NCBI GenBank assembly: GCA_965140415.1
Contig: OZ223209.1
Location: forward strand, 5,344,001 to 5,408,000
Reading direction: 5' to 3'
DNA length: 64,000 nucleotides
Source: Myxococcota bacterium
GTDB lineage: Bacteria > Myxococcota_A > SURF-8
The notes below the pieces were generated by a model. The model was not told the DNA's origin and did not search any database. It saw only the letters and a list, made by a program, of their open reading frames with translations. Both the position numbers and the translations under genes were made by a program. Shown here piece by piece: positions 11,637-56,134 of this stretch (positions within the stretch are counted from its first letter, which is position 1; the number at the start of each line of letters is the position of its first letter).

Positions 11637-11645
11637 GAAAAACTC

Positions 11646-24994: not shown

Positions 24995-25105
24995 TCACTT
25001 CACTTTCTTCTTCAATCGCTTCGCCGCCTTGTCGAACAGCTTGCCGGTCAGAATGGCCATGGCCTGCACGACAGCGGCCTTCAGGATGCGCGTGGTCTCC
25101 TTCAT
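24995..25105 (-). CDS. 36-aa cationic amphipathic peptide (not in ORF track)
   Basis: MKETTRILKAAVVQAMAILTGKLFDKAAKRLKKKVK. ATGA overlap with the upstream gene. Confidence 0.55.
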   Translation of the reverse strand: MKETTRILKAAVVQAMAILTGKLFDKAAKRLKKKVK

Positions 25106-25392
25106 GCGTCGCGCTCGCTGTCCGCATCCCAGGTTTCAGTATCGGCGGTGTCCGTGAAGTCATCGTTCAGGCTGTCAATATCCTCGTTGGGCACGATCAA
25201 GCGATCGAGGGCATAGCCGACCAGGCCGCCGATGGCTCCGCCGGCCGCCGATCCGGCTGGACCGGCCACAGCAGCACCGACCGAGGCCAGCACCCCGGCG
25301 CCAATGGCGGCATGGCGATTCTTGCGGATGATGGCGAAGAGTCCCTTCCGGGTTTCCTCCAGGTCCGTGTTCAGATTATCCAGGTCGTTCAT
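25102..25392 (-). CDS. 96-aa glycine-zipper small protein
   Basis: MNDLDNL... with AAIGAGVLASVGAAVAGPAGSAAGGAIGGLVG. AAAGGA RBS. Confidence 0.65.
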   Translation of the reverse strand: MNDLDNLNTDLEETRKGLFAIIRKNRHAAIGAGVLASVGAAVAGPAGSAAGGAIGGLVGYALDRLIVPNEDIDSLNDDFTDTADTETWDADSERDA

Positions 25393-25412
25393 TCGGGTTC
25401 CTTTCGTTTCGG

Positions 25413-26105
25413 TTACTCGACCGCCAGCCCGAAGGCCGAGCAGTCCACGACGATCTTGCGCGGGAGCGGCTGTCCCAGCGCGTGTTTCTTCACCAGGATG
25501 GCCGCCAGCGCGCCCGTGAGCATGGAGTTGTAGATCACCGCCCGCGCCGTACAGGGCAGTTGCATCGACTCCGCTGCAGGATGCAGGGTTTCCTTGTAAG
25601 CCTGCGCACCCATCAGGTCGCCGTGGGACTTGGCGGTGTAGATCACGATGAACTCGCCGCCCTGACGCGGATCGATGATCGTGATGGGCCGAGCGCGGCT
25701 GCCCTGGGCCTTGGCCTGTTCCCAGATCGTCCGGCGCGCGTCCATGTTGTCGACACAACTGATGACCAGGCGCTTGGGCTCGTCACGTCCAAGGGGCTGG
25801 TTGGTGTACCGCTGACGGAACTGACCGGGCAAGAGGCCGGTGACGCGATAGACCTCGACGCCCAGCGCCACGGCCTTGGACTGGCCCAGGTATTCAGCGC
25901 CGAAAAGTTGGTTGGGCTGGTTGTGCGGCTCTACCGTGTCGTCGTCGTAGATGTTGAGATCGGTGCAGCCCATCTTGGCCAGCGCCAGAGCGGTGTAACT
26001 CCCGGAAGCACCCGCGCCGATGATGGTGATGGGGAAGTTCAGCTTGTCGGGATGGATGATATCAAGCTGGCGATGGAACTGGGTATCAATCGTCGTGCGG
26101 TCCAT
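25413..26105 (-). CDS. ThiF/MoeB-family E1-like adenylyltransferase
   Basis: FHRQ, IIGAGASGS, YDDDTVEPHN..NQ, SKA, SCVDN..AR, IDPR, and LPCTARA (candidate catalytic Cys). AAAGGA RBS. Confidence 0.88.
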   Translation of the reverse strand: MDRTTIDTQFHRQLDIIHPDKLNFPITIIGAGASGSYTALALAKMGCTDLNIYDDDTVEPHNQPNQLFGAEYLGQSKAVALGVEVYRVTGLLPGQFRQRYTNQPLGRDEPKRLVISCVDNMDARRTIWEQAKAQGSRARPITIIDPRQGGEFIVIYTAKSHGDLMGAQAYKETLHPAAESMQLPCTARAVIYNSMLTGALAAILVKKHALGQPLPRKIVVDCSAFGLAVE

Positions 26106-26116
26106 GGCAAATCCTT

Positions 26117-26464
26117 TCAGTTGTTGCGCGTAATCTCCGGAATCTGGGAAAGCGGCGTGGGGGTGAAGTGGATATCGCGTTCGATGGCCTGCAGGCCGGG
26201 GATGCGCTGGCCGTTGATGCGGGCTTCCAGGGATTCGAGTTCGGAGAGGGAGAAGTAGCCGAGTTCGCCGCAGCCGGGCAGCACCTCGGCCCAACCGAAG
26301 CAGGTGTCACCGCCGTCGTGGTCGAATTCGGTCAAGTACCAGACCGCCCCACCATAGGCATGAAACCAACGGATGTGGGCGACGGCCTCCATGCCTTTTC
26401 CGTCCTGGGCGTACAAGGGTGGGATCGTCTTGCGGATGGATTGGGGGAGCAGTTTCTTCTTCAT
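26117..26464 (-). CDS. DUF2958-like mobile-element protein
   Basis: IPPLYAQDG...WF....WYLTEFD...CFG......ELGYFSLSEL...IERDIHF. Confidence 0.8.
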   Translation of the reverse strand: MKKKLLPQSIRKTIPPLYAQDGKGMEAVAHIRWFHAYGGAVWYLTEFDHDGGDTCFGWAEVLPGCGELGYFSLSELESLEARINGQRIPGLQAIERDIHFTPTPLSQIPEITRNN

Positions 26465-26677
26465 CGGATTACCTTCTTGTTTGGGGAAAACAGGCACACC
26501 CCTCCGCCCCATCCAGAGCGGATGGTCGGAAAGGTGGCTGAAATGGTTGGGAAATTCAGGCTAGAAGTGCTTGTCTGTTACTTCTCTTATAACACAATCA
26601 AGGAGGCTTTTCCGATCAGTTCTCCCTTCGGGTTCTAAGCAAATAGCGAATCACCTATTTCAAGAGTTTAAGAGAGG

Positions 26678-27127
26678 CTACCTCACACAGCGGACTTTGA
26701 GGCCGGTGCCGCCCGTCTTACCATTCACGTTGACGTTGACGCTACCGTGGTAGAAGTTCACATACCACGCAGTACTTGGATCCTGGGCACTCGTAGACGA
26801 CGACCAGTACGCAGAACCTGATGATACGAAGTAGTCCGTATCTATTGCTGGACTAGTTCGACTATGATCCACTAATGTTTGCAATTCCTTAACGTTTGGC
26901 AAATACCAATCTGAATGGCCAGCTAAATCCAAACCTTCACAATAGGCCAAGGCTGGTTGCCAAAGCATTATTATAGGAGCACCATCTTTCATCCACATCA
27001 GCCCCGTATCATTGTCGGTCACCGTACCGTCGCCATTATCGGTGTAATTTCCTACCGACCAAGCCACCAGCGGCACCAGTAAAATAGCCACCGCGCACAC
27101 ACCAATCAAAGCTTTCTTCATACTCAT
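26678..27127 (-). CDS. Secreted single-domain DUF1566 (Lcl) protein
   Basis: Signal peptide, DNGDGTVTDNDTGLMW, A..YC..L.LAG.SDW.LPN.KEL, YWSSS, AW.VNF, VRCVR. Confidence 0.9.
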   Translation of the reverse strand: MSMKKALIGVCAVAILLVPLVAWSVGNYTDNGDGTVTDNDTGLMWMKDGAPIIMLWQPALAYCEGLDLAGHSDWYLPNVKELQTLVDHSRTSPAIDTDYFVSSGSAYWSSSTSAQDPSTAWYVNFYHGSVNVNVNGKTGGTGLKVRCVR

Positions 27128-27171
27128 GGTTCTTCCTCCTGTTTGCTTTCACTCTCAAGATTTTCAATTCT

Positions 27172-30100
27172 TTATCGAACACATCGTACCTTGTACATGG
27201 TTGTTTTTGCGACGTAATTGACCGAGCCTTCATCGAATTGCACGCACCACGCTTGATCGCTATCACCCGCGTATTCGGTTCCGGTCCAGAAGTTTCCGCC
27301 TCGGGTCTCCGGGAAAACCCTGTCGTCGATGGCGGACTGGTACAGGCCGTAATCTACAAGACCTACCAACTCCATGCGCGACGGTAAGCGCCAGGCCGTG
27401 CTGCCGCCCAAAGACAATTCCTCGCAATACTGGACCGCATCCCCCCAGCTATGGCTTTCCTCCCAGAATCGCTGCCAGATCAGGCCGGTGACGTTGTCCA
27501 CCACCGTTCCATCCGCCGTAGGCGAATAACTGGGTTCGTTGCCCTGCACCTGGGCATCCTGGCCATAGAAGTCTTCGCCGGAAGACGGGCAGTCGATCTC
27601 GGCGGAGTTGTCATAACAGGTATGCTGCCCGGTATCCGGCAGAGTCCCGTCAGAACTCGTCAGGTGGCACTGGTAATCCTCACAGATGCGTGGAGGCGAG
27701 CAATAGCCGCATTCTCCTCCGCAGCCATCGTTCCCACAGTTCTTTCCCGTGCAGTCCGGGATGCATTCCATCGCGCCACGCACGCAGCGCACGGACATGT
27801 CGGTCGTCATGTCCGCATAACTGACCGAACCTTCGTTGAACTCGACGTACCAGGCCTTTGTTTCATCGCCCGCATAGTCGGTCGAGGTCCAGAACTGCCG
27901 CATACCCGTATCCGGGAAGGCGTAGTCGTCGATGGCGGGCTGGTAGCGACCGTAATCGACGATGGTAATCAATTCGTGACGGGTGGGCAGACGCATTCGC
28001 AAACCCCCGTCGCTCATTCCAGCGCAGTGCCTCACGGCATCTTCGCGGGTCATCAAGTCGTCGCTGACTCTCCGTTTCCAGGTCAGACCCGTAGCGACGT
28101 CGTAGACGGAATGCTCGCCCACGGTCAGATTCATGTCGATGCCGTGATATTGGGCGTCCTGGCCGAAGAAGTCCTCACCCTCGAACGGACAGAGCATCTG
28201 TTCGCTGTTGTCGTAGCACATATACTGCCCGGTATCCGGCCAGGGCCAGTGGCCGTATTCACCTTCCACGCAGTCGAAATCCGTCGTGCAGGTATCACCC
28301 TCCGAACAATACCCGCAATCACCGCCGCAACCGTCCGGACCGCAATCCATGCCGCTGCACTCCGGCAGGCAAGAGAAGAAGTCGTCCTTCACACATCGTA
28401 CGGCGTAACCGGAGGTGGCCGCCGCATAGCTGACCGCGCCTTCTGTGAAATCGACGGCCCAGTATTGGGTTTCATTTCCGGCGTACTGGGTCGACGTCCA
28501 AAAGTTGCGCGAACCGGTCTGCGGGAAGGCATAGTCGTTGATGGCGGGCATGTACCAGGAATAGTCGATGATCGTGATCAGCTCGATCCGGCTGGGCAAA
28601 CGCCACTGGCTGGAGCCGCCCAGAGACAGGCTGGCGCAGTACGCCTCGGCGCTGGTTTGATCCGCCGGATAAGCCCCGACCCGGCGCTGCCAGGTCAAAC
28701 CGGTGGCGTTGTCGTGAACCACGTCCTGCTGAATGGCGTAGTTCATGGGCACGCCGTGGTACTGGGCGTCCTGGCCGAAGAACTCCGTGTCTTCGTATGG
28801 GCACAGGATCTGGGCGCTATTGTCGTAGCACAGATATTGGCCCGTATCGACCCAGCCCCAGCGTCCGCGCTCGCCCGACACACACCAGCTGTAGGGACCG
28901 CAGGTCAGGCCGTCCGAGCAGTATCCACAGTCACCACCACAACCATCCGGACCGCAGGCGCGTCCCTGGCAGCTGGGTGTACAGGTACGGTCTCCACGCA
29001 CGCAACGGACAAAGTAGCCGGTAGTTTTGGTAACATAGCTTGCCGCGCCCTCGGTGAAATCAACGGCCCAAGCCTTGGTGTCGTCCCCGGCGTATTCCTC
29101 GCTAGCCCAGTAATAATCGGAATGGGCTTCGGGGAAGCGGCTGTCGTCAATGGCCGGTTCATACGTCCCGTAGTCCACGATCATCATCAGTTCTTTGCGG
29201 CTCGGCAAGCGCCAGTCGGAATAACCGCCGAGGGACAGACCGTCGCAGTAGCTGATAGCGCTGGCCCAGCCAGTAGCCGAGTTTTCGCCCTGCTGCCACA
29301 TCAGGCCGGTATCTTCGTGCGCGACCACGCCGCTTCCGCTGGAGGTGAAGGACATATAATTCTCGCCGTACTGGCTGTCCTGGCCGTAGAAGTCGTCTCC
29401 TTCGGAAGGGCAGGTCATCTCCGCTGAGTTGTCGTAGCAAAGCACCTGACCGGTATCCGGGAAACTCCAGTTGCCGCTACTGACTTCCACACAGTGGAAG
29501 GTTTCCAGATCGCAAACCAGCCCACCGCTGCACCCAGGCGAACAGGAGCCGCCGCAACCATCCGGGCCGCAGTCTTTGTTTGCGCAGTCAGGAACACAGA
29601 CATCGGAGTCGCCGTCCATATCCCCATCAGGGTCGATGTCTCCGTCGGGATCTATGTCACCATCCGGTGGGTCATCGGCGCAGTAGTACTGGATGGTGAG
29701 CGAGTAATCATTTCGAACGGCATGTACCGTACCTTCAACCTTCAGAATCGCTTTGGTCAACGTATTGAAGGTGTACTCAACCTGAGCAGCTTCGCTTTCC
29801 TCCGTGCCCTGATCCGAATCCAGTTCCGCGAGATTCTGACTATACAGGGTAAGTTTCAGGTTGCCATGCAGGCCCTCAAGCGAGAAGCCATAGTTGACAG
29901 TCGCCTGAAAATGGCATTCCGTTTCATACTGATCGCCCACTTGCAAGGAAAACCAGTCTTCATCACCCTGGCAGATCTCTAGGCTATTGAAATACGTCGT
30001 TGGGTCACTGATATATGAGTCTAAAACCGTAGCAGTGGAGGATTCATCATTGGGTTCCAACCGATCAGTACGACAAGGATCTACCATGTACTCGTCGGAG

Positions 30101-31752
30101 GATTCGAAGCCTCGAACAACGTCAACCATGTACGCAAATGTATAAAGGCTACCAGCAAACTCCAGTCCTAGGTCCATCCATTTTAGCGGTCCAATAACTT
30201 CCCTGAAAAGTTCCTGTGTCTGTTCTGCCGCGCGGTTCATAATAGTTTCAGGGCTTATGCGTAAACACCAACGGAGAGAATCCCAAAACGACTGGCTAGT
30301 TGCAATTCGCTCAGCTATATCCGCCAATTCGGAAAATACCAATTCGAGGTTCATATCAGAATTTGCGATGGCCGTAGCTAAATCTTCAAAAGATGTTGCA
30401 AAGAGATCCAATACAACATTCAATTGTGCTGCTTGATCCACGCTCATTCGTGACAACGCTTGCACGTTCAGCGCATCCGACACATCCAGAAAACTCTCTA
30501 CCACCGGCATTATCGCAACAGTGAGAACCGTCAGGGCTGTTGGAATGATATTGTCTGATTCCAGGTCCGTATTTCCCAGAGAAAATGAATTCAGGGTGGC
30601 GGCATTTTCAAATATGAAGGAGCGATCATCCAGCTCTTGATGTGTGCAGTCGAAATGATCGTAGTAAGACTCATCAAGGGATTCTCCCAGGCTATCCCAA
30701 AATGCCTGATCGTTTTCCCCGACAATGCTTTCCCAGCCCGATGAGCCGATACTGCCAATCAAATCGAGGAACATATCTCCAACGCCTGGTATCTCAATAT
30801 TTCGAGGACGAATTAGACCAACCCATTCTTCATTATTTTGACCAGCGTTGTGTTTGAACGTTACCCAGCGGGGTGCTGGATTCGTTACTCGATACGTTAC
30901 CTTATCTTTGACACTGTTGAAGTTGGATTCAACGAATACTGCATCCTCATTCTGCTTATCAATGTCATAGAATTCACTGTTGATCTGGTCGATTACCGGC
31001 CAATCGGCAGTGAAGCATGAATCCAGAGGAGCGCTTTTCATGTTTTTTCGGGAAGTCCTCTGAAGAGACGTAAAAACGGCAGAAACGCCGGAAAGCACAT
31101 CGGCATCGAGGTTATTCATTAGGGCTTGGTCATTGGTCAGTTTTGTTTCGATCAGCCTCGATAGTTCATCTACTTTCTCGTTTGATTTCATGGCTTCCAT
31201 GAAGGCAGCATCGAGGATGGTGTTCCCGGTAAGTACTCCCGGCATCATGAAAACCAACGCCAGAGCCGTGGTTTTAGGTGAGATCTCCGGGTTTTTCTGT
31301 ATCAGATCCGGGTGTTTGGGGAACATGCTGTACATGAACGGTTTGCTGTCCAGTTGGGCAGTAATCATACCCGTTGCATGGGTATTCATTCGGAGTTCAA
31401 AGGTGCCATCTGCGGCGGGAGTGGTTTCGTCGAGAGCGGTAACAACCTTAATGTCGGCCCAATTCACCTGAACGTTCTGCGGGAGTTGGATTCTGCCTTT
31501 GAAAATGGCCGAGTCGACAGTCATCCCGCCATGATCGACTTGCTTTTCATCCCGTGGCTCATCATTAGGGAGCCAGGAGCCATTGTCTTCGTCTCCATCG
31601 ACAGAATCATTGTCACCATCGACGACATGGTCTCCATCGATGACCGGCTGATCGCCGTCAGCGGGCTGTGACTCATTCTTTTCGCTGCTACAGGCGAGCA
31701 AGGTTAGAAGCACTGCTAAAATGAGGGTGATTCGGATGGGGTAAGGTTGCAT
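27172..31752 (-). CDS. Large lipoprotein with PPC-like domain and four tandem Cys-rich/DUF1566 modules
   Basis: LLAC lipobox, DRLEPND, and four copies of CGPDGCGG-PDTGQ..CYDN-GQDAQ-TGL.W-RLP...EL-VRCV. Confidence 0.88.
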   Translation of the reverse strand: MQPYPIRITLILAVLLTLLACSSEKNESQPADGDQPVIDGDHVVDGDNDSVDGDEDNGSWLPNDEPRDEKQVDHGGMTVDSAIFKGRIQLPQNVQVNWADIKVVTALDETTPAADGTFELRMNTHATGMITAQLDSKPFMYSMFPKHPDLIQKNPEISPKTTALALVFMMPGVLTGNTILDAAFMEAMKSNEKVDELSRLIETKLTNDQALMNNLDADVLSGVSAVFTSLQRTSRKNMKSAPLDSCFTADWPVIDQINSEFYDIDKQNEDAVFVESNFNSVKDKVTYRVTNPAPRWVTFKHNAGQNNEEWVGLIRPRNIEIPGVGDMFLDLIGSIGSSGWESIVGENDQAFWDSLGESLDESYYDHFDCTHQELDDRSFIFENAATLNSFSLGNTDLESDNIIPTALTVLTVAIMPVVESFLDVSDALNVQALSRMSVDQAAQLNVVLDLFATSFEDLATAIANSDMNLELVFSELADIAERIATSQSFWDSLRWCLRISPETIMNRAAEQTQELFREVIGPLKWMDLGLEFAGSLYTFAYMVDVVRGFESSDEYMVDPCRTDRLEPNDESSTATVLDSYISDPTTYFNSLEICQGDEDWFSLQVGDQYETECHFQATVNYGFSLEGLHGNLKLTLYSQNLAELDSDQGTEESEAAQVEYTFNTLTKAILKVEGTVHAVRNDYSLTIQYYCADDPPDGDIDPDGDIDPDGDMDGDSDVCVPDCANKDCGPDGCGGSCSPGCSGGLVCDLETFHCVEVSSGNWSFPDTGQVLCYDNSAEMTCPSEGDDFYGQDSQYGENYMSFTSSGSGVVAHEDTGLMWQQGENSATGWASAISYCDGLSLGGYSDWRLPSRKELMMIVDYGTYEPAIDDSRFPEAHSDYYWASEEYAGDDTKAWAVDFTEGAASYVTKTTGYFVRCVRGDRTCTPSCQGRACGPDGCGGDCGYCSDGLTCGPYSWCVSGERGRWGWVDTGQYLCYDNSAQILCPYEDTEFFGQDAQYHGVPMNYAIQQDVVHDNATGLTWQRRVGAYPADQTSAEAYCASLSLGGSSQWRLPSRIELITIIDYSWYMPAINDYAFPQTGSRNFWTSTQYAGNETQYWAVDFTEGAVSYAAATSGYAVRCVKDDFFSCLPECSGMDCGPDGCGGDCGYCSEGDTCTTDFDCVEGEYGHWPWPDTGQYMCYDNSEQMLCPFEGEDFFGQDAQYHGIDMNLTVGEHSVYDVATGLTWKRRVSDDLMTREDAVRHCAGMSDGGLRMRLPTRHELITIVDYGRYQPAIDDYAFPDTGMRQFWTSTDYAGDETKAWYVEFNEGSVSYADMTTDMSVRCVRGAMECIPDCTGKNCGNDGCGGECGYCSPPRICEDYQCHLTSSDGTLPDTGQHTCYDNSAEIDCPSSGEDFYGQDAQVQGNEPSYSPTADGTVVDNVTGLIWQRFWEESHSWGDAVQYCEELSLGGSTAWRLPSRMELVGLVDYGLYQSAIDDRVFPETRGGNFWTGTEYAGDSDQAWCVQFDEGSVNYVAKTTMYKVRCVR

Positions 31753-31821
31753 CGCGTTTCCTTGTTTTTCGGAACTTCCGAAAGTCGTAAATACTGATAT
31801 TCAGCCGCTATGGACCGGGAT

Positions 31822-34800
31822 TCATGGCCCGCCCCGGACACATCGATACAATTGAAGATCATTTTTGGGATGAATGCTGACATATCCCCAAAGGAAAAAG
31901 ACAGCCCAAGCTTGGGATTTATCATTCACATACGATGTTGAAGTCCACAAGATGCCTACAAGACCAGGCATGTCGGTTGAAGGATCGTATTCCTGGTAAT
32001 CTACAAGTGTGGAAAGTTCAAATTTCGTTGGCAGTCTCCAATCTGTATAGCCTGCATAGTCGAGATCCTCACATCCCTGAAGTGCTTGTTTCCATGATCC
32101 TGTCAGACTTTGCCTATGCCACGTCAAATCGGTTACTTTGTCCAAAGTTATCAGATCCCCATCGACATCTGTATGAACGAACCTGTCGCCGCTCGCGTTT
32201 GTTGCCACATGCCGGGTTCTCACAGCGCAACGAACTAAGCCTATTCCATTAGCTTTGCTACTAACTCCAGAATCAAAGTTAACCTGCCAAAAGCTATTTT
32301 CCGTCCCAGATGCATCCACGGTCGCTGTTTGATAATCGGAAGATTCTGTACCCGGGAAAAGTGAAGAATCAAATGCTTGACTGTTTTTTGCATCTGTTAT
32401 AGATAACAATTCATGAACCGTTGGCAACGCCCAATCTTGATATCCGCCGTAATCCAGTCCATTACAATAATCGACGGCTTCATCCGTTTCGCATCTTGAC
32501 CCACAAGTTGGACATCCGCCACTGCATCCGCTGTATATATCGGGTGTCCATCTCTGCCAAATCAAACCAGTCAATGTGTCGTATACCATTTCGCCCTCAC
32601 TGGCAGTGATTCGATCCGTACAGTCGAAGTCGCCATTTGTATCAAAACAACGGAAATAGCGTGCACGATCTGGATATTGTGCATCCTGTCCATAATAATC
32701 CTCACCCTCAGCCGGACAGGAGATAGATGTTACATTATCGTAACACGCCGTCTGTCCAGTCGGCGGCACGGGCCAGCATTGGTTGGTGTCGCAAAAGCCT
32801 TCCGGCGGCAGGAAGCAATTCGGATATTCGCCCAAGGCCCCCTCCGCGCACAGATTACACCAATACCCATCGAACTCCGGGTCGCATTCGCAACTGGGGC
32901 GCGTTTCACCTTCGCCGGGTTCGGTGCAGGTGCCGTGGTCGTTGCAGGGATCGGGGGCGCAGGAGGTTACGGGCAGCGTGCGGACGAGGCGGAAGCCAGC
33001 TCCGTTGCTGTGATTACCGGGTGCATAGTTCAAACGTCCTGCGGATCGGCAGATTAAGGCTCCATTACTGAAGTAGCAATTTCTTGCTGCGCGATCCGAA
33101 CCAGGAGCGGACGGACCAGCAGGATCAGTGCCCACATCACTTTCATAGGCGGTTTGATAGTAATCCCACACCCACTTCATGAGATTCCCACTCATGTCGT
33201 ATAAGCTCCAAGCATTCGCTTCCAACTCACCAACCGGATGTGTGCTAATACCTGAATTCTCCGAATACCAACCAATCTGGTTCAAGTTTGGATCTTCACC
33301 AGTCGGACTCGTAATCGTCCCATCATTCTCCTCACTCGGATAGAACGCCGTGTTGCTTCCGGCGCGGGCGGCGTACTCCCATTCGGCTTCGGTAGGTAGG
33401 CGGTAGCCATCGCAGTCCTGGGGTTTGTCCGCGTTGTTCAAGGCGACGGTCGCCGTGTCGATGCCTCCTCGGGTGGTGTTCATGCAGGTCATCGCATTGG
33501 TTCCGGCACTGGCGCCATCCTCGCATTGGATGTCTGTCAAAAGGTAACAGGGTGAAAGTCCGGCTTCGGAGCTCTTTGCATTGGCGTAGGCCAAAGCGTC
33601 GTACCAGGAAACGTTTTCCACCGGACAGTTCGAGCCACAATCTGCACCCGCGCCTTCTGGCCCAAAGTATGACGGATTCCAGCTAATCAGGCTCTCGAAC
33701 CTGTATTGCGTCGTCTCATACCGGCTCATTTCGAAGGGATAGGTCAATTCGACGAAGTGCAGGGTTTCGTCATCGTCTCGCCCCAATTCCGCCGAGCAAT
33801 CACCAGGATAGCCATCCGGGCCGGGGCAACCATCCGGACTGCCCATCCAGAAAGAACCCGCCGGGATCGACACGAAGTTTTCAGTGATGCAATTTCCACT
33901 CGCTTCTTCGCAGGTGTCATTACCGGAACATGAACAACTATAACAACCCGATGGTGAATCCCCGCAACGCCTCGGCTCGCAGTCATTGGGAATCGGTTCG
34001 GCGATGCACGCGCCCGAACCATCGCAGAAATCTTCTGTACATGGATCGGAGTCGTATTCGCAACTTTCGCCATTCTCGATATGATTCTCCAAACATACAC
34101 CCGAACCATTACAGGTGTCCTGATTCGAGCAAGCACTGGGACCACTCCCGCAGGTCATCCCTTCCGGGTCGAAGCAGGACTCGGCGTCCTCCTGGCAGGT
34201 GTTGCACTCGGTTTCCGGGCAGGGATTGCCATCGCTGATGCATTCGCCCGCCCCGTTGCAGGCATCGTCGCCGTTGCAGAAGACGCCATCGTCGCAGTCG
34301 TAGCCGGAGCCGCGCCAGGTCCAGATGTCGGTGGCGACGCCGGTGTCGCAGTAGTGGCACCGGTTGTCGGACTGCTCCTGGTTGTGCTGGTAGCAGGCAT
34401 TGTCGATCAGGCAGCGCCCCTGCTTTAAAGTATGGTTGCACTGGCCGTTGGCTGCGCAGAGATCGTCGGTGCAGGTCAGGTCATCATCGGTGCAGGTCTC
34501 GCTTTCATGCGCGGCAAGATTGTGCTTGCAGGTGCGATCCGTATCGCAGAAGGGTTCGGAGCATTCCAGGCCATCGTCGGTAAGGTCGGTGCAACCCGCA
34601 GCCGTCGTGCAATCCCTGCAAAAGCCACCGCCGTCGCATTGGTCGGTGCCGTCTCCCGTTCCTAAAACCTGGCAGGCAGTGTTGGCCGCATAGTCATTGA
34701 ACGCGCAGACGCCATTCTGACACTGCATTTCCGTGCATTCGCCATCGCGGCCATTCCAGGACATGTCGCTGCAACCATTGACGTTCACACAGTCTTTACA

Positions 34801-35754: not shown

Positions 35755-35768
35755 CTATACCGCCCCAA

Positions 35769-36848: not shown

Positions 36849-36918
36849 CATTCCCCCAGCACCTCCAGCACCGACCAGGGATCCACCGCCCGGCCATCGC
36901 CTCCGAGGACGCCGTCAA
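36849..36918 (-). repeat. Displaced copy of the JAB gene 3' end (direct repeat with 53503-53572)
   Basis: 63/70 nt identical by manual alignment. Encodes VLGGDGRAVDPWSVLEVLGE versus VLGGDGRAIDPWSVLQVLGE. Confidence 0.9.
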
Positions 36919-49106: not shown

Positions 49107-49121
49107 TCTTAATGTTATCGC

Positions 49122-49141
49122 CGGGGAGGCAAACCTCCCCG
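49122..49141 (+). terminator. Hairpin after MYXO-CTERM gene
   Basis: CGGGGAGG-CAAA-CCTCCCCG. Confidence 0.5.
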
Positions 49142-49178
49142 AGCGTTCTTAAAGCAAAAAAGAAAACTGGACATAGCG

Positions 49179-52100
49179 ATGATGACAAAGATGAAATGTA
49201 AGATGGCCTTACTATGCGTTATTGTTCTTTTCCATATTTTCGGATTGTCGGCCTGTTCCCAAGAGGTGCAGACACCAACGAATGCGAAGACCTGGGAAGA
49301 CGAAGAATTAGGCCGGTTGGAGTTGGCCTCCACGAACCTAGGAACTGGCCGCACGGCACATACGGCGACGTTGTTGACCGATGGCCGGGTGCTGGTTGTC
49401 GGCGGATCGACGGATGCCAGGGCGGAGATTCTGGACCAGAACGGAGCAAATCCGCAATTCACCGGCGCGTTGTCCACCAACCGCCTGAGCCATGCCGCCA
49501 TGCTGCTGCAAAATGGCAATGTCTGGGTGGTTGGCGGTGTTGAAGGCGTCAGTAACTACTTGGCCTCCACGGAGCTGTTTGATCCGGCTATTGGAACCTT
49601 TTCTGCCGGTCCAAATCTGACCACCGCCCGGAAATCGCCAACCTTGAATCTGCTGCGAAATGGCAAGGTTCTTGTCTGCGGCGGACAGAGCAGTTTCAGC
49701 GGCTATCTGAACACTTGCGATCTGTACGATCCGACCGGTGGAATCGTGACAGCGGTTCCGGGAACCATGCAGGAAGCCCGTGCGGGACACACGGCAGTGC
49801 TGCTACAGGATGGCAATGTCTTGATCTGCGGTGGACTTCGGGCTGCCAGCACTCCCAATGCCACCTGCGATCGCTATAACGCTGACTCAAATAACCTGAC
49901 GGCAGTACAACCAATGAATGCAGGGCGGGCGGCCCATACGGCAACAGTGCTAGCAGATGGCCGGGTGTTGGTCGTTGGCGGGCGTTCGGTTACGACAACG
50001 TTGGCAAGCGCGGAAATATACGATCCGAATGAGAACACCTGGTCGGATGGTGGTTCCCTATCTCAGGCACGGCAGTCGCATTCGGCGACGCTGCTTCCTG
50101 ATGGTTCTGTTGTGGTGGCTGGCGGGTATTCGGGAAGTCAGGCACTAAACTCTGTTGAGATATACACCGCTTTCGCTCCCCAAGCCGGTGAGCCCTGCTC
50201 CTTCGGCGCGGTGAATGCCGATGCGGGGGGCTGCGATACCGATTTGATCTGTATTGGTCTGCATGCCAATGCTAGCAGTACTCAGCCAGTTCCCTGCACG
50301 AGCGCGGCCGACTGTACATCTGTTGGCGGCAGCACCGGCGTATGCGCGGAAGCCTACTGTGGTGTTTCCTGGTGCGCGGAAGTCTGTACCGCGGATGCTG
50401 ACTGTACCGCTCCCGGCTATGGCGGCGGTTGCTGTGGTCCGGTCGGCAGCGACACCATGTGTTATATTTCCGATTTCTGTGGTGGCAGCGCGGGAGATCA
50501 GGCAGCCGGTGAACCCTGCACCTTTGGCGTGGTGAATGCCGATGCAGGGGGTTGCGATACCGATTTGAGCTGTATTGGTCTGCATGCCAATGCCAGTTCG
50601 ACCATACCTGCTCCTTGCGCCGAGGATGCCGACTGTAAAGCGGACCTCGGCAGCACGGCGGTCTGTGCCGGTGGTTACTGTGGCGTGTCCTGGTGTGCGG
50701 AAGACTGCACCACCGACGATGATTGTACTGCTGCCGGTTACGGAACCAACGGCGGCTGCTGTGGTCCGGTGGGCACCGACACCATGTGTTACATCAACGA
50801 TTTCTGTAACTCAGTTGTTGACGGAGACGAAGAGGCTGAGACAAGCTATTCTTTACCAACACCGGGCGACGTGATTTTCACGGAGTTTTTGGCAAATACT
50901 ACAGGTTCAGTCGCTGAGCAACTCGGTGAATGGCTTGAAATTTACAACATGACCGACGAGACCTTGAGCCTGGGTGGTTTGACCCTGTGCGATTCTTCCG
51001 ATGCAAACTGCGAAGTTCTGCCGATGGAATTGATGATCGGTCCCAATGAAACCCTGCTGTTTGCGGGTTCGGCAAATCCTGCGGAAAACGGCGGACTGAC
51101 CAACGTGGCCTATGATTTCGCGTTTTCGCTGAATAACAGCGGCGATGCGCTGCGTCTGTTTGATGGTGGTGCCACGGGCACGCTGATCAATTCGGTGGAT
51201 GCAACGACTTGGTCACAGGATGCCGGCTATTCCTGGCAGTTGGATGTGGATTACTACGATCCGATATACAACGATGATGCCGTGTACTGGTGCCATTGCG
51301 CTAACGAGTACGTGGCCGATGGCCCGCACTTCGGAACTCCGGGAGCGATGAATGTCAGTTGTACGGTGGTTGACGGCGACGTGGTCGATGGTGACGTGGT
51401 TGACGGTGACGTGGTTCTCGGTGATTGCTGTACTCCGCATGAAACCGGCGGTTGCAGCGACACGGCTATCAATGATTGTGTGTGCTTCTATGACAGTTGG
51501 TGCTGTGATACGATCTGGGATGCAATTTGCATGAGTGAAGTCGAGTTTTTCGAATGCGGCAGCTGTGGTGGTACCGATGGTGACCTTGACACTGATGAAG
51601 AAAGCGACGGCGAGTTGGAACCCTGTACGGACAATACCTATTGCAATAACAATGGCTATTGCTGGGGTAACAACACCTACTGTAACTGTTTGACACCGTT
51701 TGCCGGTGCAACCTGCGATGCCTGCGCGCCCGATCATGAAAACTACCCGGACTGCTTGATTACCTGCGGCGGAGGCTTGTCGCTTCTGGCGACGATCGAC
51801 CTGAACGGTAATAGCTATGGCGCCGTTATCAAAGACGGTTATCTGATTGTGGCCGAAGGCGAAACGCTGGTCAGCTATCTGCTGCTGGATATGGCCTCCC
51901 CGGTAATGATCGACAGTGTCCAGCTTAGCGATTCCATCTTCGGCCTTGCTCGCAAGGACAACTATGTCTACGCGACCACAAACCTGAACGGACTGGGAAT
52001 CGTCGACGTCAGCGACCCGGCAAATCTGGGTACACCGATTTATCAAGGTGACCTGGGCCAGCTGCGCGATTTGGCTATTGCCGGAAACTATGCCTATACG

Positions 52101-52679
52101 CACGTGCTTTTCTATGGCTTCCACATTGTCGATATCAGCACGCCCACCAGCCCAAGCAAGGTCAATTTTGTCAACATCAGTGGCGCAACAGGCCTGGATG
52201 CGGTCGGCAACTACGTGTACGTCGCCTGGCGTACGCTCAACCCGGAAGAAGGTGGCTTGGCGATCGTTGAGGTGTCCGACCCCAACAGTCCCGGCACACC
52301 CGCCATCGAGAACACCGAAACAGTCGTCGATGACTGGAAATCTGCCAGTAAAGTCAACGTAAACGGCAGCTACGCCTTTGTCGCTAATAGGGAATCAGGC
52401 TTGGCGATCATCGATGTGGACGATCCGGTAGACCCTGGTATGCCGACCTATGTGCCCGGCATCAGCGCCGAGTTAATCCATGTCCAGGGCGGCGTTGCCT
52501 ATGTCGGCGGTTACAGTGGTTTCAGGACTGTGGACGTGACCAACCCGGCCGCACCGGGCGTGCCCAACGATCTGATCGACAGCGGCAATGTCAGTAGCCT
52601 AAACGTGCAGGCGGGTTACCTGCTGCACACTAACGCTATCGATTCCAAACTCCAGATATGGGAAATCACTTGCCCGTAG
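49179..52679 (+). CDS. Kelch-propeller lipoprotein with duplicated Cys domain, lamin-tail domain, EGF and LVIVD repeats
   Basis: LSAC lipobox, Kelch module, GDVIFTEFLAN..EWLEIYN..LNNSGD..GTPG (LTD), GL.IVDVSDP repeats. Confidence 0.85.
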   Translation: MMTKMKCKMALLCVIVLFHIFGLSACSQEVQTPTNAKTWEDEELGRLELASTNLGTGRTAHTATLLTDGRVLVVGGSTDARAEILDQNGANPQFTGALSTNRLSHAAMLLQNGNVWVVGGVEGVSNYLASTELFDPAIGTFSAGPNLTTARKSPTLNLLRNGKVLVCGGQSSFSGYLNTCDLYDPTGGIVTAVPGTMQEARAGHTAVLLQDGNVLICGGLRAASTPNATCDRYNADSNNLTAVQPMNAGRAAHTATVLADGRVLVVGGRSVTTTLASAEIYDPNENTWSDGGSLSQARQSHSATLLPDGSVVVAGGYSGSQALNSVEIYTAFAPQAGEPCSFGAVNADAGGCDTDLICIGLHANASSTQPVPCTSAADCTSVGGSTGVCAEAYCGVSWCAEVCTADADCTAPGYGGGCCGPVGSDTMCYISDFCGGSAGDQAAGEPCTFGVVNADAGGCDTDLSCIGLHANASSTIPAPCAEDADCKADLGSTAVCAGGYCGVSWCAEDCTTDDDCTAAGYGTNGGCCGPVGTDTMCYINDFCNSVVDGDEEAETSYSLPTPGDVIFTEFLANTTGSVAEQLGEWLEIYNMTDETLSLGGLTLCDSSDANCEVLPMELMIGPNETLLFAGSANPAENGGLTNVAYDFAFSLNNSGDALRLFDGGATGTLINSVDATTWSQDAGYSWQLDVDYYDPIYNDDAVYWCHCANEYVADGPHFGTPGAMNVSCTVVDGDVVDGDVVDGDVVLGDCCTPHETGGCSDTAINDCVCFYDSWCCDTIWDAICMSEVEFFECGSCGGTDGDLDTDEESDGELEPCTDNTYCNNNGYCWGNNTYCNCLTPFAGATCDACAPDHENYPDCLITCGGGLSLLATIDLNGNSYGAVIKDGYLIVAEGETLVSYLLLDMASPVMIDSVQLSDSIFGLARKDNYVYATTNLNGLGIVDVSDPANLGTPIYQGDLGQLRDLAIAGNYAYTHVLFYGFHIVDISTPTSPSKVNFVNISGATGLDAVGNYVYVAWRTLNPEEGGLAIVEVSDPNSPGTPAIENTETVVDDWKSASKVNVNGSYAFVANRESGLAIIDVDDPVDPGMPTYVPGISAELIHVQGGVAYVGGYSGFRTVDVTNPAAPGVPNDLIDSGNVSSLNVQAGYLLHTNAIDSKLQIWEITCP

Positions 52680-52767
52680 CCGTGGGAAGCTCCTACAACG
52701 TAGCCGTTGGTACCTAAAAACTCCATCCAGGCACGATTTGGCGTTGATCGCTTAACGCGAACTAACT

Positions 52768-53040
52768 TTGTGGACCTGGAAGCAATGCGCTACTATGACT
52801 GGGAACGACGGGAAAGCCGACGATCCAGGTTCCACCGTTTCGCGGGGCATGTCCTACGTGGGCTCCGTCGGTAGTGGCGTCTACATTTTTGACGTATCTG
52901 ACCCCACAAATCCAGGTGGCCTTACCAATTATGGTGACGACATGAGCTCGGAAGTGAAAGTGAATTCCGGATATCTGCTGAACACCGAATCCTTCAAAAA
53001 GTACCTGCACATTTACCGGATTATCTGTCCCGTGGAATAG
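52768..53040 (+). pseudogene. Orphan LVIVD C-terminal fragment paralogous to the end of the upstream gene
   Basis: YVG...GVYIFDVSDPTNPG...VNSGYLLNT...LHIYRIICP versus VQAGYLLHT...LQIWEITCP. Confidence 0.6.
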
Positions 53041-53462
53041 TAAACCTTGCTGATCTGCCGGACAGAGACGTCTCAAAACTCCGTAAAATCCTGAGCAAGC
53101 CGGGACAGCAAAGTAAAAATACCTGCAGTCGGCTATCTGTGTTCCAATGACCAAAACAACCGCCATGCTGATGATGTATATTATAGTTTGAGAAGGGCAA
53201 TTCTAAGCGATATCGTATATGGCCCCTTCGCAACATCGCAATACAAAGGCCAATGGATGTCTATAACGGATGAACCAGTCTACTTGATCGACGGAAGACA
53301 TATTGTCAATCTCTACGACCACGGAAGCACTGGGGTGGGATGTATCGGGCAGGGATCAAAATGGGTATTCGTGGATTCTGTGCGGGTGTTGTGGGATCAT
53401 TAGCGAAGATTTGGGCTAGGTAAAAGAAGAGGTTTTGGCCTCTTCCCGAAAAAGGCTTCGGG

Positions 53463-54317
53463 TCAAACACCCGAAACCGATCCTTCTTGATTGAAGTATC
53501 CGCATTCCCCCAGCACCTGCAACACCGACCAGGGATCGATTGCCCGGCCATCGCCGCCGAGGACGCTGTCAAGGATGACCCAGAACTCGTCAAGATCGCC
53601 CTGCCAGTCCTCAACGGCGTCTAGCAGCTCCGCCGCCTGGTCAGGATTCAGGCCGACGAGTTGCAGTTCGGTGAAAAGGTCGTCGTCGGGTGCCGTGTTG
53701 CCGGTATGTTCGGTGAATCTGCGATCCAGGCCGAAGCTGAGATCGAATTCCTCATCAGGCCAGACCAGCCCCCAGGGCGCAGTTGGCGCGTGGACCTTGT
53801 CGCGCAACTCCTTTTCCAGCACCTCATCGCGCTCGACGGAGGCCAGGAAACCGACTTTGATCTGATCGACCGTGATGCGCCAGGGCGCGTACAGGTCCAA
53901 CCGAGCGCGGAAGTGGCCTTGCCGATTCGTCACGATGCTGAGCAGCCAGTCGCTGTTGTCCATCTGCTCGATGGTGTCCGCGTCCTCCGACGACCAGAAG
54001 CAGTTCATGTCGGCGTGGCTGTGCGCCCAGCAACGCAGGTCGGACACGTCGTATTCGGCTTTTACCAGTTCAGTCATCAGCGCGCCCATGCTCTCGCGGT
54101 CGGGCGAGGTGTGGCTGTCCGTGCAGGTCTGCTCCGGCAGGAGGAACGTTTTCACGATGATAGCGCTGCTGTCGGGATCGAGTTCAGTCACCCCGAAACA
54201 GCTGAACTCACCACGTGCCGCCTGCGTCCACACGCGCAACTGCTTTTCTGCTTCAGCCGACAGCAGCACTCTCGGCATTCGCATCGTCAGCTTCCGTTTC
54301 GTCTCCATCGGCTCCAT
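53463..54317 (-). CDS. JAB/MPN+ metallo-isopeptidase (prokaryotic DUB-like)
   Basis: GEFSCFG (catalytic Glu) and WAHSHADMNCFWSSED (HxH-x7-S-x2-D). Start re-placed near 54317-54278. Confidence 0.88.
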   Translation of the reverse strand: MEPMETKRKLTMRMPRVLLSAEAEKQLRVWTQAARGEFSCFGVTELDPDSSAIIVKTFLLPEQTCTDSHTSPDRESMGALMTELVKAEYDVSDLRCWAHSHADMNCFWSSEDADTIEQMDNSDWLLSIVTNRQGHFRARLDLYAPWRITVDQIKVGFLASVERDEVLEKELRDKVHAPTAPWGLVWPDEEFDLSFGLDRRFTEHTGNTAPDDDLFTELQLVGLNPDQAAELLDAVEDWQGDLDEFWVILDSVLGGDGRAIDPWSVLQVLGECGYFNQEGSVSGV

Positions 54318-55800
54318 CTTCTTGCTTGTCATCGTCTTCTTCATCTTCGTCAACCCAGGCGCTGCATTCGGATCGGTGCTCGCAGTCCGGGCATTCGGGT
54401 TCGTTTCGTTCACGGCAGTCATCTTCATCCTCCGGGTGTAAGGCGCACCATTCGCGGTGGCACTGTAAGCATTCGTAAGGCCCGCCATCGTTGCGGCAAT
54501 CGTCGCGCACGTCATCGAGATACGGACAGCGGGAATCCCCGCAGTCCAGGCACTCGCTGGGTGAGCTGTTTTCGTTGCAGCGCTCCCAGCGGCTGTCCCA
54601 GTGCGGGCAATCGCGGTCGTTGCATTCGGTGCAGCTGGCCTCTCCCGCATCAAGGCAGTCGTCGTATTCATCACGATCTTCGTCGAACCATTGAACGTAC
54701 GGGTCCAGCGGGTTGTAGCTGGTGATGTATTCGTCGAGCAAGAGTAGCAGCGTTCCCCATTCGCGCTGGGCCATGAGCTTGTTTACGTCGTCGCCGATAT
54801 TGCCCAAACACGGGCTGCCCTGTGTGGAAATGTGCGGATGGAAGTAATCCCCGCGCCATTCGTTGTTACCGACGGCTTCAAACTTAATCAGTTCCTTGCC
54901 GGTCAATTCGATCCGGCAGCGGATGTCGCCCAGTTCTGATGTTTCTCCCGAATCCGGATCTTCGATCTGCACGTCGGTATGCACGGCAACCAGTTCTGTG
55001 TCGCTGATGCTGATGGACTGGAATCGCTCACCGACGAGGGATTGCAACTGCTGACTGATGCGCTTGACCGCAGCTTCCGTCCGTCCGCACTTCTCGTTGA
55101 CGGCCAAACGGAGCAATCTTTCCTGCTCTCTTTGCTGTGTCAACGTGGCAATCAGGCGATTGTACTGCCGGGATAACTCTTGCAGGTTGCTTTCGTTATC
55201 ACGGATATCCTGTTGGGTGCGTTCCAAACTCTGACGCGAGAGCGCGCCGTAGAAGCTGCCAAAGCGGTGCGCTGTCTCAAGCGGATTGGGCGTCCGCATG
55301 GCATTCCGGCAGGCCCAGTCGAAGCCGTCCTTGAAGATGTGGGCCAGCAGGGAGCGCTTGGCTCCGAAGGTGACCTCCAGACCATTCTGAAACCGGATGC
55401 TGTTTTCATCGATGCGACCGATGTACAGGGTCGAACCGTCCAGCGTCCACGCGCCATGTACGTACGGCACTTGGATGTCGTCGAATTTGCCGAGGGAGAT
55501 CCAGTGTTTCCTATCCTCGTTCAGCAGTTTGCGTTTCTGGCCCATCACTGCCACGTTTACCGGAGCCAGATAGAATCGGAAATCATCGTCGATGTCGTTC
55601 AGCGTGACCAGCGCGGTCACCTCGTATTCGCGGCTGGTGACGATGGTCACCACCCGGCCGAGAGTGTACGCCGCATCCGAGCGGTCATCTTCCTTTACCT
55701 GGACGATGGGACGCTGGTCGGCGGGAAAGTCCAGCAGCCATTTCTGCATGAGCGCCCGAAAAATCTCCGGAATGCGGGTGGTATCGTTGAGATGTTCCAT
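54253..55800 (-). CDS. E2-like (UBC-fold) protein with coiled coil and C-terminal Cys-rich repeats
   Basis: AGGAGG RBS before ATG 55800. YFHPHISTQGSPCLGN resembles the E2 HPN...G.ICL active site. Four CxxC-x4/5-C repeats follow. Confidence 0.75.
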   Translation of the reverse strand: MEHLNDTTRIPEIFRALMQKWLLDFPADQRPIVQVKEDDRSDAAYTLGRVVTIVTSREYEVTALVTLNDIDDDFRFYLAPVNVAVMGQKRKLLNEDRKHWISLGKFDDIQVPYVHGAWTLDGSTLYIGRIDENSIRFQNGLEVTFGAKRSLLAHIFKDGFDWACRNAMRTPNPLETAHRFGSFYGALSRQSLERTQQDIRDNESNLQELSRQYNRLIATLTQQREQERLLRLAVNEKCGRTEAAVKRISQQLQSLVGERFQSISISDTELVAVHTDVQIEDPDSGETSELGDIRCRIELTGKELIKFEAVGNNEWRGDYFHPHISTQGSPCLGNIGDDVNKLMAQREWGTLLLLLDEYITSYNPLDPYVQWFDEDRDEYDDCLDAGEASCTECNDRDCPHWDSRWERCNENSSPSECLDCGDSRCPYLDDVRDDCRNDGGPYECLQCHREWCALHPEDEDDCRERNEPECPDCEHRSECSAWVDEDEEDDDKQEDGADGDETEADDANAESAAVG

Positions 55801-55870
55801 GAAACCTCCTGTAAAAATGCGAACGGCGGAAGGTTTCCCCTCCGCCGCTCTGGTCCTGACCTCCTTTCGG

Positions 55871-56134
55871 CTACTGGTGGAACGCCACGCCACCGTCGAC
55901 CTTCGGCGTGAGCGCGATGATGTCGCCGTCGTCGGGACGTTCGTGCAATTGGGTGTGGACGCCGTTCAGCGTCGCCATGTAGCCTTCGCTCTGAAAGCCC
56001 GCCGAGAGGAGAGCGTCGGCGATAGTGCCGCCGGCGGGAATGGTGGTAACCTTCTGCCTGCCGATGCTGACGACGGTGATGCGGATGCCATGATTGCGGG
56101 ACTGGGACTGCTGGTCATTCTGGTTTTGGTCCAT
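55871..56134 (-). CDS. Ubiquitin-like (ThiS/MoaD beta-grasp) protein with GG plus 5-residue extension
   Basis: AGGAGG RBS. TIADAL...LNG.....DGDIIALTPKVDGG|VAFHQ. Confidence 0.85.
   Translation of the reverse strand: MDQNQNDQQSQSRNHGIRITVVSIGRQKVTTIPAGGTIADALLSAGFQSEGYMATLNGVHTQLHERPDDGDIIALTPKVDGGVAFHQ

Follow-up and report, generated by a model that had tools for sequence, protein, structure and literature searches.

A probably complete ubiquitin-like conjugation cassette in the backbone of Myxococcota integrative elements, recurrently split by cargo genes

A 64,000-nucleotide stretch of the genome of a Myxococcota bacterium (NCBI GenBank assembly GCA_965140415.1, contig OZ223209.1, positions 5,344,001 to 5,408,000 of the forward strand; hereafter the window) raises the question of whether two groups of genes lying far apart on its minus strand constitute a single ubiquitin-like conjugation system. 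The right-hand group comprises a sigma-like gene, a gene that we term orfX, and the genes for a ubiquitin-like protein (Ubl), an E2-like protein and a peptidase of the JAB superfamily, while the left-hand group comprises a DUF2958 gene, an E1 gene and two small open reading frames (ORFs). JAB and DUF2958 are separated by 26,998 bp (26465-53462), occupied by a cargo of unrelated genes. To our knowledge, the only bacterial ubiquitin-like conjugation systems tested to date are those of defence (CBASS Cap2, Bil and Bub). An initial annotation of the window had proposed that the two groups belong together on the backbone of a mobile element, and an ORF check of the minus strand found all its gene coordinates and motifs to be correct; its description of the two halves as similarly GC-rich holds roughly, the GC content being 0.63 at 25-26 kb, 0.55-0.59 at 53-57 kb and 0.44-0.61 in the cargo. 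Based on the comparisons presented below, we think it probable that the locus contains one complete Ubl-E2-JAB-E1 cassette in the backbone of a family of Myxococcota integrative elements, with accessory genes inserted between JAB and the DUF2958-E1 pair, and with the cassette working in trans as two units.

The first issue is whether the distant E1 belongs to the set at all, and synteny indicates that it does, as the cognate fourth gene. The comparison covered seven genomic loci found via the E2 gene, nine distant loci chosen from seven Myxococcota genomes of other families plus one IMG/VR contig, and ten metagenome loci. In locus L002, from a related Myxococcota metagenome-assembled genome (MAG), an orfX fragment, Ubl, E2, JAB, DUF2958, E1 and the small gene follow one another free of gaps. 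In L003, 4.3 kb with two Lcl_C genes intervenes between JAB and DUF2958, which again lies immediately 5' of E1, and L007, from a gammaproteobacterial MAG, possesses two E2 genes, a JAB and an E1. Of 301 genomes sampled throughout the phylum, 17 contain the E2 family according to a UBC-domain profile; E2, JAB and E1 are adjacent in all ten distant loci, with Ubl 5' of them in seven, and with the contig ending at or inside E2 in the other three. Likewise, E1 directly follows JAB in four of the ten metagenome loci (L045, L046, L047 and L049, L047 being the same record as the IMG/VR contig); L044 and L048 end within E2 or JAB, and no E1 is present in the 0-5 kb available from the close relatives L040-L043. 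Whole-genome searches of five relatives recovered matching numbers of JAB and E1 genes in four (2:2, 1:1, 1:1, and 1:1 with an additional JAB fragment), and no E1 in the fifth, whose genome is 86% complete. The assignment of the far E1 to the set in the initial annotation is thus borne out both by L002, where JAB adjoins DUF2958-E1, and by the distant relatives, where it adjoins E1 itself. Furthermore, L003 belongs to a different family of the order, and its E1 and that of the window share 94% identity, which fits horizontal spread.

The second issue is the nature of the split. The genome of the window contains three diverged copies of the whole backbone (A, that of the window, B and C), with JAB and DUF2958 spaced by 27.0, 22.4 and 9.2 kb, on the same strand and in the same order in each. 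In relatives the distance from JAB to DUF2958/E1, likewise on the same strand, is 0 kb in L002, 4.3 kb in genome G018 (L003) and 18.6 kb in genome G030; the split state recurs. Every full copy retains all seven genes intact, with ratios of nonsynonymous to synonymous substitution rates (dN/dS) of 0.06-0.23 at dS 0.25-1.1 (orfX 0.10-0.14 among the copies of this genome, DUF2958 0.08-0.17, E1 0.06-0.13). This purifying selection across copies implies that both halves stayed under selection through a long divergence while split. The same genome also harbors remnants, namely two extra full DUF2958-E1 pairs, one E1 fragment and four 5'-truncated JAB fragments. It is hardly credible that the 27-kb separation is an artefact of assembly or a unique rearrangement of the chromosome. 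An assembler could indeed be misled, or recombination promoted, by the several near-repeats of the backbone; however, the genome is a single 5.98-Mb contig, the same junction with different inserts in the same orientation is found in all three of its copies and in two other genomes, and a remnant of the JAB 3' end marks a boundary within the cargo.

DNA homology among the copies covers 53497-69588 and 24547-26590 (the latter including the smaller of the two small ORFs) and ends at the same two points, 53497 and 26590. Beyond dispersed repeats, no DNA homology was found between the cargo of the window and those of copies B or C. The window cargo encodes proteins with Lcl_C, FGE-sulfatase, Kelch, LVIVD, EGF and LTD domains in Pfam, five of its genes having a lipobox (by regular expression) and three more having signal-peptide-like N-termini (by eye). 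In copy B the cargo includes a chemotaxis-type methylesterase/methyltransferase, a histidine kinase, a phosphofructokinase and glycosyltransferases, and in copy C it includes kinases, an insertion sequence (IS), BLUF and rubrerythrin genes and a second DUF2958-E1 pair. On the JAB side, the genes of all copies correspond as far as ...GTGCTGGGGGAATG, beyond which the last ten or so codons are copy-specific. The remnant of the JAB 3' end inside the window cargo separates a plus-strand block of 16.6 kb from a minus-strand block of 10.3 kb. On the DUF2958 side lies a conserved non-coding stretch of about 130 bp, a candidate promoter, operator or recombination site, present in copies A, B, C1, C2 and D of this genome and in L003, and absent from the contiguous L002; covariation is seen in only one of its 23 predicted pairs, and a search of the whole window against Rfam returned no family.

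These features led us to consider a more specific scenario, which we regard as unlikely: the last JAB codons could be a dedicated cargo-capture site, where blocks recombine at one point and each leaves behind a copy of the JAB 3' end, and the operon could be a backbone function that tags proteins of the host or of rival elements during establishment, rather than a host defence. If the capture-site part were true, the element would enlarge its accessory region inside its own ubiquitin-like operon, and the 130-bp inverted-repeat stretch would be either the other half of the site or a promoter that keeps E1 expressed.

Several further observations concern the same region of JAB and the cargo. The 5'-truncated JAB fragments all stop at the same breakpoint. 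More copies of the JAB 3' end occur at genome positions 5442488-5442546, 4129200-4129263 and 2170680-2171243, and at window-equivalent 73091-73130 (genome 5417091-5417130; window-equivalent positions continue the numbering of the window beyond its end), where a 40-bp copy, 92.5% identical, lies on the opposite strand just beyond the integrase. In L005, from a related MAG, an 8.7-kb insert (L005:1248-10001) is located between Ubl and E2, not after JAB; it carries two caspase-domain genes, FGE-sulfatase/Lcl_C genes and a DUF4384 gene, and the same families recur as cargo around these elements.

The third issue is whether the proteins are equipped for the chemistry of conjugation. The Ubl is a putative beta-grasp protein whose C-terminus reads ...VDGG-VAFHQ; its GG is invariant in six of six orthologues and is followed by one to five variable residues. 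The NCBIfam ThiS model matches it with E 6.5e-5, and a profile search of the PDB gave PF1061 (E 1.1e-3) and SAMP2 (E 3.1e-3) as the best matches, with an alignment that reaches the terminal GG. The JAB protein has a zinc site (E26 and H88-S-H90-x7-S98-x2-D101) that is invariant in eight of eight members, and its profile matches Rpn11-like proteins (E 6.9e-4) and CSN5 in the PDB. Its predicted model (mean pLDDT, the per-residue confidence score, 65.5) gave 200 Foldseek matches in the PDB at E<=1e-3, the best at 4.1e-9, with leading entries that contain Rpn11 or CSN5; Pfam, including Prok-JAB, yielded no match. The E1 is recognized by Pfam ThiF (E 3.2e-14, 53.1 bits, cut-off 28.1), and a ten-member profile has E. 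coli ThiF as its leading PDB match (E 4.1e-16, nearly full-length), ahead of Uba1 and UBA5. Residues R12, Q13, G30-x-G32-x-x-G35, D54, D56, N62, Q66, K77, D119, R124 and C185 are invariant in ten of ten members. The E1 has one ThiF domain and aligns end to end with the 251-residue ThiF; 14 relatives measure 188-230 residues. As a separate observation, the E1 also matches PHROG 15670 (E 3.7e-10) over nearly its full length, and small ThiF-type E1s therefore occur in phage genomes too.

The E2-like protein required closer scrutiny. It consists of an N-terminal alpha/beta domain, a long coiled coil, a UBC-like domain (residues ~238-375, DNA 54667-55095) and a Cys-rich acidic tail. The motif Y-x-HPH-x4-G-x-PCLGNIG is invariant in all 12 family members, as is SYN-x3-PY; HPH occupies residues 321-323, Cys331 follows as HPH-x7-C, and the Asn position of the HPN-type motif is His. 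The P, the second H, the C, the G and the N are nearly invariant across 107 distant members of the domain family. When the profile was compared with the PDB, the top 24 rows were all Ubc13/UBE2N (best E 6e-3), covering the whole UBC fold and placing HPH on HPN and Cys on Cys. The full-length predicted model has a mean pLDDT of 62; VIA-align of its residues 238-375 gave Z 6.4-7.6 with 108-119 residues aligned at a root-mean-square deviation of 3.9-5.0 Å, and 49 of the 50 rows listed were entries containing an E2. The UBC fold that had been looked for in this candidate was thus found, at moderate strength, by both VIA-align and the PDB profile, and we read residues ~238-375 as a real though divergent UBC domain, on moderate statistics. 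Together these results support the four activities of the initial annotation, with Ubl, E1 and JAB recognized via profile or fold, and E2 via motif, profile and a moderate fold match.

With 3,685 cluster representatives at E<=1e-3, and 1,119 still at E<=1e-10, the family of the E2 domain is large, and it lies largely outside the models searched. Neither Pfam (E<=0.1; Prok-E2_A to E included), nor NCBIfam, nor PADLOC gave a relevant match to the E2-like protein, and a Pfam scan of 107 top members of the family (E<=1e-3) produced one UQ_con match (E 2.9e-5) and no Prok-E2 match. Ten clusters that were looked up are metagenomic, their sole names being 'hypothetical protein'. The domain had no match in phage and plasmid collections by single-sequence tblastn, a pattern scan of viral contigs recovered a single E2 locus, and the N-terminal 235 residues had no usable match in the ESM Atlas. 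Independently, the tail (residues ~382-479, DNA 54253-54660) shows 16 invariant or nearly invariant Cys in about four C-x2-C-x4-C-x9-C repeats followed by a poly-acidic stretch, along with a weak profile match to an RNA polymerase subunit chain (E 0.16); it may comprise metal-binding or target-recognition modules, in a region of low model confidence. The hairpin between Ubl and E2 (Table 1) is possibly a partial terminator.

From the motifs and from the precedent of Bil, we infer every chemical step, the target and the role in the following cascade: 1) The JAMM peptidase would remove the five residues after Gly82 of the 87-residue pre-Ubl. 2) The E1, presumably a homodimer like ThiF/MoeB, would adenylate the exposed Gly-Gly and probably form a thioester on the invariant Cys185. 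3) The tag would pass to Cys331 in the UBC-like domain of the E2. 4) The N-terminal domain, coiled coil and Cys-rich tail of the E2 would select the target, a part proposed for them because no separate E3 is evident. 5) JAB would probably be able to undo the tagging as well. The best profile matches, ThiS/SAMP for the Ubl and ThiF for the E1, would also suit sulfur-carrier chemistry of the ThiS/ThiF or MoaD/MoeB type with no protein conjugation. We consider this very unlikely, given that the genes for Ubl and E1 consistently enclose those for a JAMM peptidase and for an E2-like protein whose HPH...Cys is invariant, that the Ubl has residues past its GG which need removal, and that the loci scanned contain no linked genes for a sulfurtransferase or for cofactor synthesis.

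The DUF2958 protein and the small genes accompany the E1. DUF2958 is a clear match to Pfam PF11171 (E 1.3e-14, 54.9 bits, cut-off 21), and in L002 it stands between JAB and E1. The 96-residue protein encoded 3' of E1 matches Pfam C19orf12 and Gly-zipper below cut-off and phrog_594 with E 1.3e-6, and its gene is similarly placed in L002 and in copies B and C2 of this genome. In two distant conjugative-type elements, a 289-residue DUF2958 protein is encoded about 2 kb 5' of Ubl (L045:1454-2323 and L046:3342-4211), and DUF2958 is thereby linked to the cassette in two different positions.

Several points weigh against a single functional cassette: 1) The initial annotation took the genes to form a single transcript, which is impossible in the window copy, because the JAB stop codon is overlapped by a terminator-like hairpin and the neighboring 16.6-kb block of cargo is encoded on the plus strand. 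2) A sigma-70 promoter scan of 24500-27200 found none, so that DUF2958-E1 has no recognisable promoter there. 3) The right module of A is closest to that of C (89.8% vs 81.9% DNA identity), the left module being about equally close to both (84.3% and 84.7%); as the modules differ in their closest paralogue, the halves have partly separate histories. 4) No Ubl or E1 was found in L004 or in its genome, G036. 5) The match of the Ubl to Pfam ThiS (E 8.9e-4, 20.2 bits) is slightly under the cut-off of 22.5. 6) The E2 fold statistics are moderate, with VIA Z below 8 and the PDB profile at E 6e-3, and Foldseek found no match to the full-length E2 model at E<=1e-3. 7) The E1 possesses neither a UFD nor a separate Cys domain with which to dock an E2. 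The first and third of these points, together with the presence in the genome of five full E1 copies as against three of Ubl-E2-JAB, are also what one would expect had the split uncoupled the halves, leaving Ubl-E2-JAB inert or repurposed without an E1, and DUF2958-E1 with its small genes acting independently on another substrate. Such an uncoupling is nevertheless improbable in our judgment: purifying selection is similar on both halves in copies at dS 0.5-0.9, the split state is seen in at least three genomes, E1 is beside JAB in all distant relatives where the contig allows, and the JAB and E1 counts match in four of five relatives. We accordingly retain the single cassette, acting as two units, as the preferred reading.

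Table 1. Features of the locus (positions in the window or, beyond its end, window-equivalent; start codons were picked from ribosome-site context)
Feature	Position	Strand	Remarks
Small basic ORF (putative)	24995-25105	-	36 aa; overlaps stop of the 96-aa gene; from ORF list
Gly-zipper-like small protein	25102-25392	-	96 aa; 3' of E1
E1 (minimal ThiF-type)	25413-26105	-	230 aa; single adenylation domain
DUF2958 protein	26117-26464	-	115 aa; PF11171
Conserved non-coding stretch, ~130 bp, 5' of DUF2958	26465-26595	-	Imperfect inverted repeat around CCATCC-N5-GGATGG
Cargo	26596-53462	both	Ten large genes covering 25,116 bp; secreted proteins/lipoproteins
JAB 3'-end remnant in cargo	36849-36918	-	63/70 bases identical to 53503-53572, same orientation; tblastn, JAB residues 238-260
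Terminator-like hairpin on JAB stop codon (putative)	53454-53478	-	10 pairs and T-run; pattern scan
JAB (JAMM/MPN+ metallopeptidase)	53463-54284	-	273 aa; helical C-terminal extension
Last conserved 70 bp of JAB, homology breakpoint	53503-53572	-	Repeated inside cargo
E2-like protein	54253-55800	-	515 aa; ATG 55800 behind AGGAGG; full ORF 54253-55893
Hairpin between Ubl and E2	55821-55850	-	13 pairs (9 G-C), then T-run; pattern scan
Ubl	55871-56134	-	87 aa; probably ThiS/MoaD-type
orfX	56233-56982	-	249 aa; 5' of Ubl
Sigma-70/ECF-like gene	57058-57759	-	233 aa from ATG 57759; element backbone
AEP primase-DnaB-like helicase-3'-5' exonuclease-family-A polymerase fusion	61201-64000, on to window-equivalent 65793 (L008:1-2793)	-	1,530 aa; Pfam on both halves
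D5_N primase-helicase	window-equivalent 68197-69609		Beyond window
Tyrosine integrase with Arm-binding domain	window-equivalent 71131-72303		Beyond window

The backbone in which these genes are embedded is, judging by its integrase, D5-like primase and primase-helicase-PolA fusion, an integrative element. The fusion protein is 82% identical to its paralogue in copy B. A mobile-element backbone for the set, outside the low-GC island at about 5.9-20.5 kb that resembles a defence island, is as the initial annotation had stated. Its sigma-like call has a match behind it, TIGR02937 at E 1.1e-4, though one that falls below the cut-off (21.8 vs 42.9 bits); tblastn with this gene gives six matches genome-wide, of which three belong to the three backbone copies. 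By contrast, the label SSB-like (single-stranded DNA-binding) that had been given to orfX is backed by none of Pfam, NCBIfam, PHROG and the PDB, and we have dropped it for want of a supporting match. The product of orfX has no sequence match in Pfam, NCBIfam or the PDB and one weak match to a PHROG of unknown function, and its Atlas features resemble those of unnamed phage proteins, which we note as a lead. In the clade orfX is always directly 5' of Ubl (L001, L003, L005, L006 and L043, with fragments in L002 and L041), and its residues C102, C120, C123 and H125 are invariant. Between the sigma-like gene and the fusion (window 58704-61114), three genes resembling components of an IS encode an HTH_23 protein, a 176-residue protein and a 334-residue protein having transposase-type helix-turn-helix domains and no DDE match; as these genes recur at the corresponding place in the other two copies, at 37-94% identity, they are probably backbone regulators and not an insertion. 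Comparison of the integrase flank with the window or the left end gave no exact direct repeats (of at least 14 bp, or at least 11 bp), and the window and the next 20 kb contain no tRNA genes. A diverged sigma-like paralogue at window-equivalent 78260 suggests a fourth, decayed element head to head with that of the window.

What the cassette might do for its carrier is bound up with this location. Wherever examined, it lies in the replication, recombination or transfer module of integrative elements, and the distant cassettes adjoin genes for an integrase or serine recombinase, Replic_Relax, a TrwB-like coupling ATPase, a DnaG-type primase, SprT-like, RecT and PDDEXK nuclease proteins. A role in the service of the element (control of replication or establishment, anti-defence, or competition with other elements) has, in our estimate, somewhat short of an even chance. 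We are more doubtful of a Bil-like anti-phage defence carried for the host, in which the Ubl would be conjugated to a phage structural protein upon infection and the element location would be incidental; what remains is some other role or none. The Bil-like role draws on the same gene order as BilA-B-C-D and a Ubl that likewise needs JAB pre-processing, as far as the portion of the Bil literature used here goes, on the frequent carriage of defence genes by mobile elements, and on the defence island about 5 kb left of the left module. One distant cassette, moreover, adjoins Thoeris genes (SIR2-STALD and ThsB-TIR), an association that fits defence as well as it fits an element-serving role. Against a Bil-like role stand the fixed position in the replication, recombination or transfer module, both in the three copies of this genome and in distant elements, the location of the cassette outside the variable cargo where accessory genes sit, and the lack of a PADLOC match for Ubl, E2 and JAB and of the tandem inactive and active adenylation domains (IAD/AAD) and Cys domain described for BilD in the same portion of that literature.

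Two neighborhoods deserve mention in their own right. In three distant cassettes a PD-(D/E)XK (PDDEXK_1) gene occurs shortly 3' of E1 (L030:9850-10917, L035:10958-11740 and L045:7381-8154), and this nuclease may be a further linked component. The low-GC (0.37-0.44) island of the window (5925-20491, minus strand), separate from the Ubl cassette, encodes an SMC/AAA_23 ATPase, a ResIII/DEAD helicase, a PDDEXK_13/REase-ARP nuclease and a WCX-domain regulator as its clearer matches, NT5C-like (20.2 vs 24.8 bits) and radical-SAM (22.3 vs 29.5 bits) proteins below the Pfam cut-offs, and a 997-residue protein with RNA-polymerase alpha-CTD-like repeats and sigma region 4.

What is new at the level of sequence is a cassette family that pairs a minimal E1 with a classical-motif E2 outside the profile libraries used, that occupies a fixed backbone position, and that has a defined cargo junction inside its operon. 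Tools based on adjacency would call the window set E1-less and incomplete, although its E1 is intact, conserved and 9-27 kb away in this genome. The cassette thus lends itself, as a compact system, to the question of what protein tagging does for mobile elements. The literature covered, which left subscription journals and supplementary tables (Bil/Bub operon catalogues) outside, holds no account of a cassette with this E2 and a minimal E1, nor of a split one; it holds only incidental mentions of DUF2958 and, among the matches listed, nothing on the mechanism of PRTRC. In PADLOC no relevant model was found for Ubl, E2 or JAB, and the E1 matches only the Cap2-type 'E1-E2' models; the release presumably includes Bil/ISG15-like models.

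Among the known systems close to the cassette is Bil (bacterial ISG15-like, BilABCD, Types I and II). The parts of its published accounts used here describe the order Ubl-E2-JAB-E1, trimming of the Ubl by JAB, conjugation by E1 and E2, a BilD in which an inactive and an active adenylation domain stand in tandem and the Cys domain is mobile, and a Type II BilB that is a CEHH-type E2 (10.1101/2023.09.26.559546; PMC11601603). Taking Bil as those parts present it, the cassette shares with it four separate genes in the same order (in L002 and the distant loci, and in the window too, where the order is interrupted by 27 kb), Ubl residues beyond the reactive Gly and a predicted relay from an E1 Cys to an E2 Cys. 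The initial annotation had named Bil among the systems with this core; the Bil-type E1 architecture is absent, the E1 being a 230-residue protein with a single ThiF domain, and the E2 bears its HPH...Cys inside a 515-residue multidomain protein, unlike the Type II CEHH-type. The two further differ in that the cassette sits in the element backbone, here split by cargo, and in that an anti-phage role is known for Bil, whereas for the cassette it is a candidate role.

The PRTRC cassette (NCBIfam TIGR03734-03742), found on plasmids and integrative conjugative elements (ICEs), invites a second comparison, as it too is a mobile-element-borne combination of a single-domain Ubl, a JAB, a small ThiF-type E1 and an E2-like protein. 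In class 6d E2s, as described in the portion of the source used, the classical His is missing and the Cys is followed by an invariant His (PMC1779556). From the species listed there we infer that PRTRC equals operon class 6d, a name that this portion of the source does not itself connect with PRTRC. The E1 of the window scores against PRTRC_ThiF with E 4.7e-11 and 42.5 bits (cut-off 144.75). The membership in PRTRC entertained by the initial annotation did not hold up: the PRTRC A, B and C models have no match to proteins of the set at E<=0.1, PRTRC_B has none in the whole genome, and the class 6d E2 signature, as given in that portion of the source, is lacking, since the cassette E2 has an invariant HPH before the Cys and no invariant His after it. 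In addition, a ParB gene is absent from the window.

The remaining comparisons are with sulfur-carrier systems and eukaryotic E2s. It resembles ThiF/MoeB in an E1 that is ThiF-sized and aligns over its full length, including a Cys that matches the conserved Cys of ThiF, and it resembles ThiS/SAMP in a Ubl of probably the same type with a GG. In contrast, the ThiF/ThiS and MoeB/MoaD systems of E. coli and the archaeal SAMP/UbaA system are without an E2 and, in bacteria, without a JAB, and their Ubl ends at the GG with no tail. Eukaryotic E2s (Ubc13/UBE2N, UBE2S and UbcH5/7/8) differ from the cassette E2 in having a catalytic Asn where it has His as the third residue of the motif, and in lacking its arrangement, in which an N-terminal domain and a coiled coil precede the UBC-like domain and, in this clade, a Cys-rich tail comes after it. 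They nonetheless provide the best profile and structure matches of residues ~238-375, with Cys331 falling on their catalytic Cys, and SYNP-x-DPY on the start of the helix marked by SPN-x-x-DP.

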